Shown: piece after piece, positions 1,761 through 5,788 of the stretch
Numbering within the stretch: position 1 is the first letter of the stretch
Layout of the letters: each line of letters begins with the position of its first letter
Translations under genes and position numbers: made by a program
Notes under the pieces: model-generated
What the model was told of the DNA's origin: nothing
Database searches by the model: none
The model's input: only the letters and a program-made list of their open reading frames with translations
DNA from: Escherichia coli
Lineage (GTDB): Bacteria > Pseudomonadota > Gammaproteobacteria > Enterobacterales > Enterobacteriaceae
Direction: 5' to 3' (one strand)
Length of the DNA: 7,140 nt
NCBI RefSeq assembly: GCF_003334335.1
Contig: NZ_QOWQ01000073.1

Positions 1761-3251
1761 TTATAAGCCAAAGGATTGCTCATGCCATCTTATCAGTTTC
1801 TGGCTGTAGCACGCATTCAGTTCAGGCAGCGTGATATTGTTTATTTCGGAAAGCAGGACATAGGTGGTTTTTCCTTCCTGCACGACAGAGAGCCTGAGTT
1901 GAGATGCAAGAATGTTCAGCAGGACGTTCAGCTTTTTCCTGTTCCGGAACCGGCCCGGGCCACACTGGAGAATATAATTTTTCCTGACACGGGGCGGGCA
2001 TTCTCCGCGGCACTCCTCAATGAGCCAGTCGAGCAGCTCCCGGGCGTCCTGCAGCTGCAGTTCAGATTCGTCAGGTAACGCAAATAATTTTTTATATTCA
2101 TCTGTGTACCACGAACTTATTACGACAGCAGACGTCATGATATCGGCAGAGATTTTCCCTTCACCCTGACTGAAATACTGCAATAACGCAGCAATTCTCG
2201 CAATGTTTTCTGTTTTTTTTGAAACATGCCCCCGAAACTGGCTTAAGGGTCCGGAAGGAGACAAATCCTGCTCCAGAACATTATAGTGATCAATAAATAT
2301 TTTTTGCGCTTCAGGAGAAAAATGCAGACAATAACGTTCATCCTTACTGGATTTTTCAATACTGCCTCTGGCCAGTTCCATTAATCGTTCATGAAATGCC
2401 GTTAATGATCCTCCCGGGGTCACAGCTCCGTTAATAAAGCGTTTCCCCTGCGTGGTGGCAGGTTTACTGATTAGACAACGGGCAAGAAAACCACTGTCCC
2501 TGGCAACAGAACCTTTTCGCTCCATATATCGGTCAAAAAGACCGGGTTGTACCATGAGGGATAATGTCATTCTAGCATTTTCAATCATCTGTTCGGGTTC
2601 ATTCTTTCTGTCCACCGACAATACGGAGCCATCCCACATTTTGTTAATAAAAGGCAGCTCAGACAGGGTATACCCATCAAATATTATACCGGCTTCATCA
2701 GACATGATACCCACTGAACGCCACTGACCACAAAGCTGATCTTTAATTGCTGCTGTCGTGGCATCATTAAAAATGAATTTATATCTTACAGGTTTTTCCC
2801 CTCTGTTTTTCTGAAGCGCTTCCAGTTGTCTGAGCGTTTCTGACTCATCCGCGCCTTTGCGGAGTTCTTTATTCAGTTTTGACAACAATGCTTTTTTCTG
2901 CGCCTTTAAAAGCTCTTCCTTATTTTTCCATATCGTCAGTTCATTTTTGTGTCTGGAATATAACAGCATCTCCTGCTGGTACAGGGGCTCCATTAATAAT
3001 TTGTCCACTGCGGTTTTTCGTTCTCCGGACTCAGCAAGCGTCAGTAAGAAAAGAGAAACCGGCCCCCGCAGTGTATTCAGTCTGCAGACATCAATCAGAT
3101 TCTGGCAGACAAGTGAAACAGCGCCCAGGGCAGATGCTGCCACAAGCCCCAGGGGAGCCTGCGTGATTTGCTGAGCTTCAATAACGGCATCACGAATGAG
3201 TGGAGGCAGCGAGCTCAGGGGAAACTCATCAGGATACTGAAAGTATGGCAT
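1761..3251 (-). CDS. DUF3987 / YfjI-like island protein, 496 aa, with Walker A-like and Walker B-like motifs
   Basis: Track ORF 1761..3269. The preferred start is ATG at 3251 (minus strand), preceded by GAGG at 3260-3257 with 5-nt spacing. The N-terminus MPYFQYPDEFPLSSLPPLIRDAVIEAQQITQAPLGLVAASALGAVSLVCQ matches the conserved YfjI/DUF3987 N-terminal pattern as I remember it. AESGERKT (aa 73-80) resembles a Walker A and VGIMSDEAG resembles a Walker B. Confidence 0.85.
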   Translation of the reverse strand: MPYFQYPDEFPLSSLPPLIRDAVIEAQQITQAPLGLVAASALGAVSLVCQNLIDVCRLNTLRGPVSLFLLTLAESGERKTAVDKLLMEPLYQQEMLLYSRHKNELTIWKNKEELLKAQKKALLSKLNKELRKGADESETLRQLEALQKNRGEKPVRYKFIFNDATTAAIKDQLCGQWRSVGIMSDEAGIIFDGYTLSELPFINKMWDGSVLSVDRKNEPEQMIENARMTLSLMVQPGLFDRYMERKGSVARDSGFLARCLISKPATTQGKRFINGAVTPGGSLTAFHERLMELARGSIEKSSKDERYCLHFSPEAQKIFIDHYNVLEQDLSPSGPLSQFRGHVSKKTENIARIAALLQYFSQGEGKISADIMTSAVVISSWYTDEYKKLFALPDESELQLQDARELLDWLIEECRGECPPRVRKNYILQCGPGRFRNRKKLNVLLNILASQLRLSVVQEGKTTYVLLSEINNITLPELNACYSQKLIRWHEQSFGL

Positions 3252-4084
3252 AATGACCTCACAACACACAGAACATAAAGTACCGCAACTATTGCTACTA
3301 ATAGCAAAAATAGCAGCAGAATCAATACAGGATAAAAATTTCTGTCGATTTTCAGATTAAATAATAACCATTCGGTATTTTGTCGCTAAAGAATGTTAGA
3401 ATGAATCTGTGCGTCTACGGGCGCTCTCCGGAACACACATGTTGATTAATTTTCACACAACAACGTACCAGCAAAAAGCATCATCCAGGGTATTGCAGGT
3501 ACGGGTTTCCTGCCGGGAATAAACATAAACAGTTTCCCCGGAGTAACGCTTTCAGAAAACTGCCCTCCTGAAGAAGAATAAAATAAAGAAGATGACAGTT
3601 CCTGCACTGAATGCTGAGTACAATATTCTATGGACAGGATGACATTTTTATAAATAACAAAAACCATTTAATACTGATACATCAATAAAATACTTCCTCC
3701 CTGCTGACACAGATAAAATGCAACATTTTTTCTTCAAATACTTCTGTATAATCGCCAGCCAATGATGAGAATGGATTAAAATAACACTTCTTCGACAAAC
3801 ACAAAAACCAGCCTTCATTTTCACATCATCATCCAGTTTTAATTAAACCCTGACGAGCGACAGTATTTCAGTTCAGGAATTAAAAGCCAGCTATTACTCA
3901 GTAAAAACACCACCAACTAATAATATCTCAGCAGATATTTCCTGACCAGGATGACACATTTATTAAAGATTTTTAACAGGACACTTCACATTACTGAACG
4001 CTATTCCGACAGTATCACTACACAAATAAAAAAGGGAACTGGATAAATATTCATGCCGGAAGAATGGTGTAACAAAAGCATTTA

Positions 4085-4097
4085 ATCATTACGTGCG
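4085..4097. repeat. 13-bp direct repeat ATCATTACGTGCG, copy 1
   Basis: Exact match to 4209-4221. It lies 14 bp left of the palindrome. Confidence 0.7.
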
Positions 4098-4110
4098 TAT
4101 TCCTCTCTAT

Positions 4111-4140
4111 TCGATCACGGTTTGGCCAAACCGTGATCGA
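4111..4140. repeat. perfect 30-bp palindrome TCGATCACGGTTTGG|CCAAACCGTGATCGA
   Basis: The reverse complement of 4111-4125 equals 4126-4140 exactly. It contains GATC at 4113-4116 and 4135-4138 and a central TGGCCA. The palindrome does not extend beyond these ends (T4110/T4141 mismatch). Confidence 0.9.
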
Positions 4141-4208
4141 TTCAGATGCCATTTTGCAAGTACGCATGACCCGGAAGGGAAACACTTAACAACATGGTAT
4201 CAACAGAT

Positions 4209-4221
4209 ATCATTACGTGCG
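4209..4221. repeat. 13-bp direct repeat ATCATTACGTGCG, copy 2
   Basis: Exact match to 4085-4097. It lies 69 bp right of the palindrome. Confidence 0.7.
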
Positions 4222-4357
4222 CACTCTTATAAAAATACACAGCAGAAGCAAGATAACTCTAAACGTAAATTTAATATCTCCCACTGACTGCCCCGACAAT
4301 ATACTGAAAAATACTCACCTCAGTAAACATAAACACACCTGATAATCAGGCTGCAAG

Positions 4358-4441
4358 ATGAATATTTTTCTCCTTTACGGAGTAATCAGCCTGCTGTTTA
4401 ACAATAACCGCGTATTTTCATGGAAGGATATCACCCAATAA
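4358..4441 (+). CDS. speculative 27-aa small ORF MNIFLLYGVISLLFNNNRVFSWKDITQ
   Basis: ATG 4358 to TAA 4439-4441. Only a weak AGG (4348-4350) lies upstream. The N-terminal half is hydrophobic. It is the only small ORF positioned upstream of the 4528-4566 terminator. No homology recognised. Confidence 0.2.
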   Translation: MNIFLLYGVISLLFNNNRVFSWKDITQ

Positions 4442-4527
4442 CGGATAACTCCTGCCCTCCTTCATGTTAATACGCAACATCCCCATCGATTCCAAACAAT
4501 TTCAGACAGATATTATCTCCGTGAATC

Positions 4528-4566
4528 CCCCGCCACCTTTCCGGTGTGCGGGGTTTTGTCTTTTTT
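4528..4566 (+). terminator. intrinsic terminator 17 nt upstream of the yeeP start codon
   Basis: CCCCGCCACC (4528-4537) pairs with GGTG-T-GCGGGG (4543-4553), giving 10 bp with one bulged T4547 and loop TTTCC. It is followed by TTTTGTCTTTTTT (4554-4566). There is no T-run on the opposite strand, so it is + strand specific. Confidence 0.75.
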
Positions 4567-4582
4567 CACCGGGAATACATGT

Positions 4583-5455
4583 ATGAATCCGTCTGATGCC
4601 ATTGAGGCAATTGAAAAACCACTTTCTTCCCTGCCTTACTCGCTTTCCCGTCACATCCTGGAACATCTGCGCAAACTCACCAGTCACGAACCCGTGATTG
4701 GCATTATGGGTAAAAGCGGGGCCGGTAAATCCTCACTCTGTAATGCACTGTTTCAGGGGGAGGTCACCCCGGTCAGTGATGTTCACGCCGGCACCCGGGA
4801 AGTGCGGCGCTTCCGTCTGAGTGGCCACGGTCACAGCATGGTTATCACTGACCTGCCCGGGGTGGGCGAGAGCCGGGACAGGGATGCAGAGTATGAAGCC
4901 CTGTACCGTGACATTCTGCCTGAACTGGACCTGGTGCTGTGGCTGATTAAAGCCGATGACCGGGCCCTGTCTGTGGATGAGTATTTCTGGCGACACATCC
5001 TGCAGTGCGGACATCAGCAGGTGCTGTTTGTGGTGACACAGGCCGACAAAACGGAGCCCTGCCATGAATGGGATATGGCCGGCATTCAGCCCTCTCCCGC
5101 ACAGGCACAGAACATTCGCGAAAAAACGGAGGCGGTATTCCGTCTGTTCCGGCCTGTACATCCGGTTGTGGCCGTATCGGCCCGCACCGGCTGGGAACTG
5201 GATACGCTGGTCAGTGCGCTCATGACAGCGCTTCCCGACCATGCCGCCAGTCCCCTGATGACCCGCCTGCAGGACGAGCTGCGCACGGAATCTGTCCGCG
5301 CTCAGGCCCGTGAGCAGTTTACCGGTGCGGTGGACCGGATATTTGACACAGCGGAGAGCGTCTGTGTTGCCTCTGTTGCACGCACGGTTCTGCGTGCCGT
5401 CCGTGACACAGTGGTCTCTGTTGCCCGCGCGGTATGGAACTGGATCTTCTTCTGA
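4583..5455 (+). CDS. yeeP: YeeP/YkfA/YfjP-family prophage GTPase (50S ribosome-binding GTPase fold), intact, 290 aa
   Basis: Track ORF 4544..5455 begins at GTG inside a terminator hairpin. ATG 4583 gives MNPSDAIEAIEKPLSSLPYSLSRHILEHL..., which I recognise as the YeeP-family N-terminus. G1 P-loop is GKSGAGKSS, G3 is DLPG, and the G4-like motif is TQADK. The hydrophobic/amphipathic C-terminal tail is ...VVSVARAVWNWIFF. It lies directly upstream of agn43, as in CP4-44-type islands. Confidence 0.9.
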   Translation: MNPSDAIEAIEKPLSSLPYSLSRHILEHLRKLTSHEPVIGIMGKSGAGKSSLCNALFQGEVTPVSDVHAGTREVRRFRLSGHGHSMVITDLPGVGESRDRDAEYEALYRDILPELDLVLWLIKADDRALSVDEYFWRHILQCGHQQVLFVVTQADKTEPCHEWDMAGIQPSPAQAQNIREKTEAVFRLFRPVHPVVAVSARTGWELDTLVSALMTALPDHAASPLMTRLQDELRTESVRAQAREQFTGAVDRIFDTAESVCVASVARTVLRAVRDTVVSVARAVWNWIFF

Positions 5456-5555: not shown

Positions 5556-5600
5556 AAAACGATCGATACCTATTTTATCGATCGTTAATATCGATCGTTA
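5556..5600. promoter_or_regulatory. agn43 phase-variation operator: three Dam GATC sites within the OxyR-binding region
   Basis: GATC occurs at 5561-5564, 5580-5583 and 5593-5596, each in a CGATCG context. ATCGATCGTTA is repeated at 5577-5587 and 5590-5600. The position immediately downstream of the -10 matches the published Dam/OxyR switch of agn43. Confidence 0.85.
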
Positions 5601-5760
5601 TGCTAATAATAACTCCTGTTAGCAACGTGCACAGATACACACAGACATGAGATTCAGGGAACAACAGAGCCACACGTCAGAAACTTCCGTCAGCCGGACC
5701 TCCGGCACTGTAACCCTTTACCTGCCGGTATCCACATCTGTGGATACCGGCTTTTTTATT
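5562..5760 (+). ncRNA. isrC: agn43 leader / IsrC-like terminated leader transcript (~200 nt)
   Basis: It runs from the predicted start (~5562) to the leader terminator T-tract (5752-5760), which ends 28 nt before the flu ATG. In K-12, as I recall it, isrC (~195 nt) lies between yeeP and flu on the flu strand and ends shortly before flu. The boundaries here are inferred, not mapped. Confidence 0.5.
5724..5760 (+). terminator. intrinsic terminator inside the agn43 5' leader
   Basis: Perfect 12-bp stem GCCGGTATCCAC (5724-5735) / GTGGATACCGGC (5740-5751), loop ATCT, followed by TTTTTTATT (5752-5760). Confidence 0.8.
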
Positions 5761-5788
5761 CACCCTCACTCTGATTAAGGAAATGCTG

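Follow-up and report, generated by a model that had tools for sequence, protein, structure and literature searches.

We conclude, with a probability of about 0.6, that the 1331-nt gap between the yfjI gene and a YeeP/YfjP-type GTPase gene in a CP4-57-like island of Escherichia coli is non-coding DNA that is built of three layers and lies in the variable cargo slot of the island. The gap occupies positions 3252-4582 of a stretch of 7,140 nt on contig NZ_QOWQ01000073.1, which was analysed as a whole and is called the window here. The window is part of a CP4-57/CP4-44-like integrative genomic island, and the gap reaches from the start codon of yfjI on the minus strand (3251) to the start codon of the GTPase gene on the plus strand (4583). 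The last approximately 95 nt would form the leader of an operon that is headed by the GTPase gene yeeP and continues with isrC and agn43. In this leader, a sigma-70 promoter with a spacer as conserved as its hexamers would be followed by an intrinsic terminator within the first approximately 45 transcribed nucleotides and then by a ribosome-binding site. Most transcripts would end at the terminator, by which the operon may be held low through attenuation, and transcription arriving from upstream cargo may be stopped at the same place. For the divergent yfjI, the first 80 to 120 nt would supply a palindromic operator-like cluster as well as the ribosome-binding site. What remains is a filler of about 1.1 kb with no gene, no recognisable wreck of a gene and no origin anatomy, which has taken up two miniature elements of the IS21 type.

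The first-pass annotation of the window had described a 1.33-kb AT-rich gap without a convincing open reading frame (ORF), and this description was borne out, since no ORF is conserved and the G+C content is 38.2%, compared with 45.9% for yfjI and 58.8% for the GTPase gene. A long low-G+C stretch of 1237 nt within the gap has 37.7% G+C; the E. coli genome has about 51%. The earlier G+C counts were exact (19/60 at 3661-3720, 21/60 at 3781-3840 and 38/60 in the GTPase gene at 4801-4860), as were the positions of a TATAAT (3747-3752) and of the inverted repeat AATATCT/AGATATT (3922-3939). The palindrome and the terminator that had been noticed also exist, as a perfect 30-bp palindrome at 4111-4140 and as a hairpin plus T-run at 4528-4566. 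When promoter-like and terminator-like sites in the gap were counted, their numbers matched those in shuffled sequences (4 versus 3.8 and 2 versus 1.7, respectively), so that, taken alone, neither the TATAAT at 3747 nor most of the small inverted repeats exceed what chance would give. The plus strand of 3252-4582 was skewed throughout, with 468 A versus 354 T and 303 C versus 206 G. A plus-strand RNA from the gap would be rich in C and poor in G, a composition favourable to Rho loading.

The conservation of the leader was surveyed by searching one genome per species with the GTPase protein, which gave 41 loci. Outside Escherichia only 4489-4582 of the gap matched, with 75-94% identity, and the GTPase protein at these loci was only about 60% identical. 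The genera include Citrobacter, Salmonella, Klebsiella, Enterobacter, Lelliottia, Serratia, Hafnia, Yersinia, Photorhabdus and Edaphovirga. The first-pass annotation had named, as a refutation, a complete lack of conservation between related islands; this turned out to be half the case, as only the last approximately 95 nt are conserved outside Escherichia. Within the leader the conservation was uneven. Among 16 loci from other genera, the mean identity reached 87% in a 41-nt box, and it was 69% in both the hairpin region and the coding sequence and 57% in the unrelated DNA upstream. In E. coli, the leader was present in 4,257 of 5,426 complete genomes. It was located almost exclusively directly upstream of the GTPase gene. 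We did not find this element described in the literature searched.

The conserved box (4487-4527, plus strand) has the appearance of a sigma-70 promoter. The -35 hexamer TTCCAA at 4490-4495 is followed by the 15-nt spacer AATAATTTCAGAYAGA at 4496-4510, which is almost invariant across the genera, and by the -10 hexamer TATTAT at 4511-4516, after which stands the conserved CTCCGTGAATC. The spacing of the hexamers lies within the 15-19 nt of sigma-70 promoters; a strict consensus scan did not list the site. The same box is found upstream of yfjP in K-12, and genomic SELEX (systematic evolution of ligands by exponential enrichment) with the RpoD holoenzyme assigned 'constitutive promoters' with the sequence TTGAAA-15-TATCAT upstream of ykfA and yfjP in K-12 (Shimada et al., PMC3946193). 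The box in the window island is best read as a putative promoter of the sigma-70 type for the GTPase-led operon. If TATTAT is the -10 hexamer, transcription is predicted to start at about 4523. The invariant spacer suggests that a DNA-binding regulator acts on the promoter. At the other end of the leader, the ribosome-binding stretch of the GTPase gene (4567-4582, plus strand) contains GGGA at 4571-4574 in front of the ATG at 4583, and a purine-rich motif (GGGA, GAGA or GGAG) was present at the equivalent place in all aligned leaders.

Between the box and the ribosome-binding stretch lies the hairpin with its U-run (4528-4566, plus strand), which begins about 5 nt past the predicted transcription start. 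In the window, CCCCGCCACC pairs with GGTGTGCGGGG around the loop TTTCC, and the stem (4528-4553) has 10 pairs and one bulge with a predicted folding energy (dG) of -19.5 kcal/mol and a z-score of -4.9. The tail TTTTGTCTTTTTT follows at 4554-4566, and the consensus scan also found the hairpin. A hairpin was folded in 31 of 31 leaders (mean dG -16.2 kcal/mol, mean z-score -3.9), which contain 30 distinct hairpin sequences; when the folded leaders were read by eye, at least five unrelated stem sequences were seen among the groups. A U-run, defined as at least 6 U in 8 nt, was counted in 23 of the 31 leaders. Reading of the other eight showed that several have a U-run that is masked by pairing in the predicted fold, and that three leaders of the Pectobacterium group do not.

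The hairpin covaries among the leaders. In the covariance-model alignment, which was fitted to the structure so that its figures lean towards the structure, nine of the ten pairs had changes on both sides, 82% of the hairpin cells were paired compared with 73% in column shuffles and 30-62% in slid-partner controls, and the covariation score was 0.204 compared with 0.114 in the shuffles and lower values in the slid controls. Neither value was reached by any of 500 shuffles. By its stem-loop, U-run and covariation the hairpin is classed as an intrinsic terminator, the efficiency of which we infer. An outer helix around the terminator that would mask the Shine-Dalgarno (SD) sequence was considered and rejected as a general feature, as only 8 of 28 leaders exceeded their shuffles and the helix failed on a MAFFT alignment; if transcription starts after TATTAT, most of the 5' strand of this helix would not be transcribed.

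At the opposite end of the gap, a control stretch for yfjI was recognised at 3256-3316 (minus strand). The SD sequence GAGGT of yfjI is the reverse complement of 3256-3260. Further upstream of the gene there is a near-palindrome, GCTACTAATAGC, at 3294-3305, which is the perfect GCTATTAATAGC in three variants of the island, and two direct AATAGCA half-sites are located at 3300-3306 and 3309-3315 and nowhere else in the window. The 120 nt that adjoin yfjI are conserved in all five variants. Taken together, these features point to a putative operator/promoter region for yfjI. The earlier idea that the gap is a regulatory region was supported in part, at its two ends, by the leader (4487-4582) and by the operator-like cluster at the start of yfjI.

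The variable part of the gap (3270-4480) was present over at least 80% of its length in 1,867 of the 5,426 complete E. coli genomes, and it was flanked in every case by a YfjI-family gene on one side and by the GTPase gene, followed by agn43, on the other. The window is 100% identical to several human isolates and 99.6% identical to CFT073. At least four sequence types of the gap were distinguished, namely window/CFT073, L011 (97%), L002/L013 (88%) and L010 (78%). In the pairs with gap identities of 0.88 and 0.78, third codon positions of yfjI had identities of 0.87 and 0.85, respectively; the gap hence changes as fast as this proxy for silent sites or faster. The alignment of the variants showed many indels of 1, 2, 5, 7, 29 and approximately 70 nt, that is, of non-triplet lengths, and IS66 insertions and truncations of the gap occur. 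By these comparisons, the filler (approximately 3330-4486) drifts at about the neutral rate.

A 32-nt direct repeat with 75% identity was observed in the filler at 3623-3654 and 3935-3966, with the copies 312 nt apart, and several weak inverted pairs share a similar offset of about 300 nt. All of these are two-copy repeats of 70-92% identity in AT-rich DNA. The second copy of the direct repeat overlaps the 29-nt indel that is absent from L002 and L013. The repeat may be the trace of an old duplication.

Two short elements in the filler resemble miniature inverted-repeat transposable elements (MITEs). The first comprises 65 nt at 4094-4158, has TG...CA ends and includes the 30-bp perfect palindrome (4111-4140). 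L002, L013 and L010 lack this element and read AATCATTACGCATGACC at the empty site. The element consists of the right end and the left end of an insertion sequence (IS) of the IS21 family, joined head to head. Its halves match the istA/istB element on plasmid pRM13745-2 (left end, L016 2400-2535; right end, L061 150-183), and the left-end half corresponds to the outermost of the roughly five 23-nt repeats that are arrayed at that end. The perfect palindrome arises because the outermost repeats of both termini are joined head to head. On its flanks stand ATTACG (4088-4093) and AGTACG (4159-4164), which are identical in 5 of 6 positions or, read otherwise, form a perfect 4-bp TACG with two extra bases. 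Dispersed copies were found on plasmids and chromosomes; those with 92% identity lie between genes on many plasmids of E. coli, Salmonella and Klebsiella and at other places in islands of this kind. Half-length matches are common, with up to 50 places per genome. The palindrome is thus a relic of a miniature IS21-family transposon. The left end of the IS21-family element carries four or five tandem repeats of about 23 nt (ATGCCAAAYCGTGATCGATT...; L016 2400-2535, L017 2425-2541), and in O157:H7 such a left end survives as a solo fragment beside an IS66 element in the tellurite-resistance island.

The second element comprises 68 nt at 4409-4476 with the termini TGCGTATT...AATACGCA, in which the first T is a C here, and it folds into a long imperfect hairpin whose inverted arms were found in the repeat search. 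It is absent from L010. About 950 plasmids have a match to the half at 4410-4442, and plasmids also carry full copies. Both elements share with IS-derived MITEs that they are short and non-autonomous, have TG...CA ends made of two IS ends, are dispersed and show presence/absence polymorphism. Unlike these, the first element is a bare junction of the outermost repeats that forms a 30-bp palindrome, and its target duplication (ATTACG/AGTACG) is imperfect.

The position that the filler occupies upstream of the leader is taken by diverse cargo in other loci. A type I restriction-modification (R-M) system, a type II R-M pair (Klebsiella) and a gene for a 383-aa hypothetical protein were found there, and in the CP4-57 island of K-12 the slot holds AbpAB, YfjM and RnlAB. 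PADLOC identified Gabija GajB and a type III methyltransferase in other loci, and Pfam identified proteins with HEPN, PLD and ResIII domains. In several genera a fast-evolving protein of approximately 290-340 aa ends exactly at the start of the leader box (L027 8917-9867, L033 8271-9179, L036 8986-9900, L039 9032-9907 and L020 8872-9891). The identity between its groups is 20-44% and neither Pfam nor PADLOC gave a match; it may represent an unrecognised cargo or defence family. In Klebsiella sp. R390 (L031), the leader and the first approximately 25 codons of the GTPase gene are duplicated at 7685-7860 and 9904-10080, and the type II R-M pair is inserted between the duplicates (methyltransferase 8108-8983, partner 8980-9609). 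The duplication points to recombination at the leader as the route by which cargo reaches the slot.

The gap occupies this defence-cargo slot and contains no cargo. With defence hotspots such as the AbpAB/RnlAB site in the CP4-57 island of K-12 the island shares the conserved flanks and a variable slot that holds mostly anti-phage systems. P4-like satellites have defence-gene hotspots of the same sort. In contrast to such hotspots, the slot here has no gene and is filled with 1.1 kb of AT-rich non-coding DNA that is common to about one third of the complete E. coli genomes.

Since related islands carry genes in the same slot, the filler could be what is left of one or several earlier cargo genes that have decayed beyond recognition. 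The gene of about 300 codons that ends exactly at the leader box in several genera would fit in size, and the steady skew of the plus strand towards A over T and C over G across the whole gap also speaks for such an origin. The search for genes and gene remnants, however, was negative throughout. In the approximately 1,800 complete genomes of E. coli in which the gap is present, NCBI/PGAP annotated no feature over it. Across the six frames, no stop-free stretch was longer than 85 aa, and shuffled sequences gave 83.8 +/- 18.8, so the stop-free lengths are those of random sequence. The ten longest six-frame stop-free segments had zero matches in Pfam and NCBIfam, and 18 such segments joined as one query had no match among 5.8 billion proteins. 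Cargo proteins of related islands were compared by tblastn with four gap variants in a 5-kb database, with more than 80 queries that included all large proteins encoded in 17 related loci on the upstream side of the GTPase gene and the K-12 CP4-57 proteins YfjJ, AbpA, AbpB, YfjM, RnlA and RnlB. None matched, and the best E-value was 0.03. When DNA matches to the gap were followed in the 5,426 genomes of E. coli to identities as low as about 65-70%, none was annotated as a gene, and no intact homologue was found under them. The decayed gene that the first-pass annotation had offered as one reading was not detected by any of these searches, and we consider an origin of the filler from former cargo genes unlikely.

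The gap was also inspected for small ORFs. The two ORFs listed in the first-pass annotation (3446-3667 and 4093-4287) exist and neither is conserved. No ORF of the gap in the window was intact across all island variants, and a 73-aa ORF is already frameshifted in L011, which is 97% identical. The 64-aa ORF at 4093-4287 begins at the edge of the first MITE-like element and is therefore a by-product of the insertion. Two further candidates were rejected, a hydrophobic ORF of 27 aa at 4358-4441, which has lost its ATG in one lineage and extends into the second MITE-like element, and an ORF of 40 aa at 4464-4586, which is broken in L010. The idea of a small protein received no positive evidence, and the gap has no coding signal and is non-coding.

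Two internal blocks of the filler differ from their surroundings. Block A (3452-3531) is the best-conserved internal stretch, with identities of 0.89-0.95 in a comparison of three lineages for which the background is about 0.75. Its substitutions showed no bias for third codon positions, the overlapping ORF is unconvincing, and no covariation was detected for any fold. Block B (4168-4285, plus strand) has identities of 0.88-0.90 and holds the best sigma-70-like match of the gap, TTAACA-16-TATCAT at 4186-4213, which agrees in 10 of 12 positions and points towards the GTPase gene. The likeness between block B and the leader box was marginal (P = 0.05). A repeated operator with an AGATAT motif common to the leader box, block B and 3922-3939 was rejected, as its alignment scores were no better than those of shuffles.

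One or both blocks might be a small RNA (sRNA), or a promoter for a plus-strand RNA of about 340 nt that ends at the leader terminator, which lies downstream on the same strand. The conserved block B with its 10/12 match and the stretch 4215-4570, which folds better than shuffles (z = -4.4), are in favour of this. Against it stands that much of the folding energy comes from the terminator and from the hairpin of the second MITE-like element, the insertion of which is absent from one lineage, and that promoter-like sites are no more frequent than in shuffles. A scan with Rfam covariance models at E <= 1, as the first-pass annotation had proposed, gave no match in 3252-4582; the only match in the window was IS102/isrC at 5559-5764. 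The lack of covariation in block A points in the same direction, where three or four lineages limit the power of the test. In the literature, nothing usable was found on sRNAs, on H-NS data or on the old locus tags c3651-c3654 at this locus, and MavR/sRNA56 was set aside since it is located in the ter locus and not at the gap. The earlier sRNA reading was left with no positive evidence, and an RNA from the blocks seems improbable to us. The only RNA element of the gap that has support is the terminator hairpin of the leader.

For the leader itself, we asked how far its architecture resembles known promoter-terminator systems. In lambda PR'-tR' with Q and in Pseudomonas aeruginosa PalpB-tB with AlpA, promoter-proximal terminators are read through (PMC7969949, PMC9371919). 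The targets of both factors have, like the leader, a conserved element between the -35 and -10 hexamers and a terminator that stands ahead of the first gene in a long mobile-element operon. By analogy, box and terminator might be a switch of the Q type or of another factor-dependent type, in which a factor of the island or the host bound to the spacer would allow read-through. Unlike these systems, no Q-like factor was found in the 7 kb of the island examined, the leader has no clear -10-like pause element, and its terminator stands at about +5 and not at +54 or further. The analogy is architectural only, and we rate a switch of this kind as quite unlikely. Two proteins of the window were considered as the factor and rejected. 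The AlpA-like protein shares only the name with P. aeruginosa AlpA, as it is a 68-aa member of the PF05930/HTH_17 family and the latter an unrelated protein of about 150 aa; its only matches in the PDB were 8c3t ('AlpA family phage regulatory protein') and TorI. The 190-aa protein (1068-1640) had no Pfam domain and no sequence match in the PDB, and for a Q-like fold its AlphaFold model was poor (pLDDT 63) and gave no Foldseek match. With the trp and pyrBI attenuators and the 5' stem-loop of ompA the leader shares a hairpin just upstream of the ribosome-binding site that is followed by a U-run. In contrast to trp and pyrBI, it has no leader peptide and no alternative antiterminator pairing.

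It was also considered whether the hairpin is only a shared terminator for upstream cargo and the box a recombination or protein-docking site for cargo exchange rather than a promoter. The homology with the variable cargo ends sharply at about -95, the upstream plus-strand genes end right at the box, and in the Klebsiella locus described above the leader and the 5' end of the GTPase gene stand on both sides of the R-M pair. Yet the RpoD holoenzyme binds the corresponding K-12 regions in vitro (PMC3946193), and both the hexamers and the distance between them are compatible with a promoter. Cargo on the opposite strand, as in several islands, needs no terminator there, and homologous recombination in the conserved flanks accounts for cargo exchange without a special site. 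We regard this explanation as very unlikely and prefer a promoter followed by a terminator.

A replication origin of a P4-like or PICI-like (phage-inducible chromosomal island) element beside the putative replication protein YfjI (DUF3987), as suggested earlier, is most improbable: the gap is AT-rich and non-coding and directly adjoins the DUF3987 gene (PF13148, E = 2e-94), as in the iteron origins of P4 (ori/crr), Staphylococcus aureus pathogenicity islands (SaPI) and PICIs, and blocks A and B are conserved without other explanation, but unlike those origins it has no iterons and no DnaA boxes, drifts near neutrality and is located upstream rather than downstream of the gene. In detail, no 8-10-mer recurred above shuffles and the repeat search gave only two-copy families, DnaA boxes (allowing one mismatch) and IHF core sites were absent, a scan for 13-mers was at or below chance, and GATC occurred in the gap only inside the first MITE-like element. 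The gap diverges at least as fast as the third codon positions of yfjI and tolerates truncation as well as the insertion of MITEs and ISs, and in the CP4-57 island of K-12 yfjI has another orientation with genes downstream of it.

Several observations weigh against the three-layer reading. The -35 hexamer of the leader box (TTCCAA) is weak, and in Term-seq tables of K-12 (PMC7815308), a method in which short RNAs may be lost, neither yfjP nor ykfA has a 3' end listed upstream of it. The leaders of the Pectobacterium group keep the hairpin without a U-run, and termination is therefore perhaps not its sole role. Blocks A and B are conserved above the background without an explanation. The filler has kept a length of about 1.2 kb in three lineages despite neutral drift, which could hint at a constraint on length or composition. 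The H-NS high-affinity motif was not enriched in the gap, with 3 sites found and 2.8 expected.

From composition (38% G+C, plus strand C-rich and G-poor), a silencing of the AT-rich filler by H-NS/Hha and by Rho is plausible. Chromatin immunoprecipitation (ChIP) or transcriptome data for the locus were not found in the literature. An Hha-family gene of the island is located a few hundred bases beyond the left edge of the window (L001 2418-2642 in CFT073), and Hha/YmoA paralogues are likewise present in L002, L009, L010 and L013, which is relevant to the proposal that H-NS takes part in silencing the AT-rich parts of the island.

The other features of the window are those of the island. From left to right, a gene for the AlpA-family helix-turn-helix protein (776-982, PF05930) is followed by the 190-aa gene without an assigned family (1068-1640), which is conserved in all island variants, and by the convergent yfjI gene (1761-3251, minus strand). 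Between the latter two, an inverted repeat CGTCACCC...GGGGTGACG at 1679-1712 was spotted by eye, which may be a bidirectional terminator. On the other side of the gap, the GTPase gene (4583-5455, plus strand) is followed by the IS102/isrC RNA, a full-length Rfam match with 255 bits, and then by agn43. The IS102/isrC match overlaps a GATC-rich stretch at 5559-5600. We take this stretch to be the Dam/OxyR phase-variation region of agn43.

Islands of the CP4-57/CP4-44 type are present in most E. coli and carry Ag43, toxin-antitoxin pairs, anti-restriction genes and defence systems. The long 'empty' gap in such an island needs no hidden gene or origin, and the filler is of little consequence. The gap is mostly ordinary and the leader modestly interesting, in that a short unannotated promoter-terminator leader, more conserved than its gene, would head the main operon of the island in at least 12 genera. 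Should a factor indeed act on its spacer, the switch would turn on the GTPase-Ag43-antirestriction-CbtA/CbeA operon of CP4-57-family islands across the Enterobacterales. A very common class of genomic islands would then have a widely conserved control point that is so far undescribed. If the leader is a regulated attenuator, it would be the obvious place to study how these islands silence their operon and switch it on.

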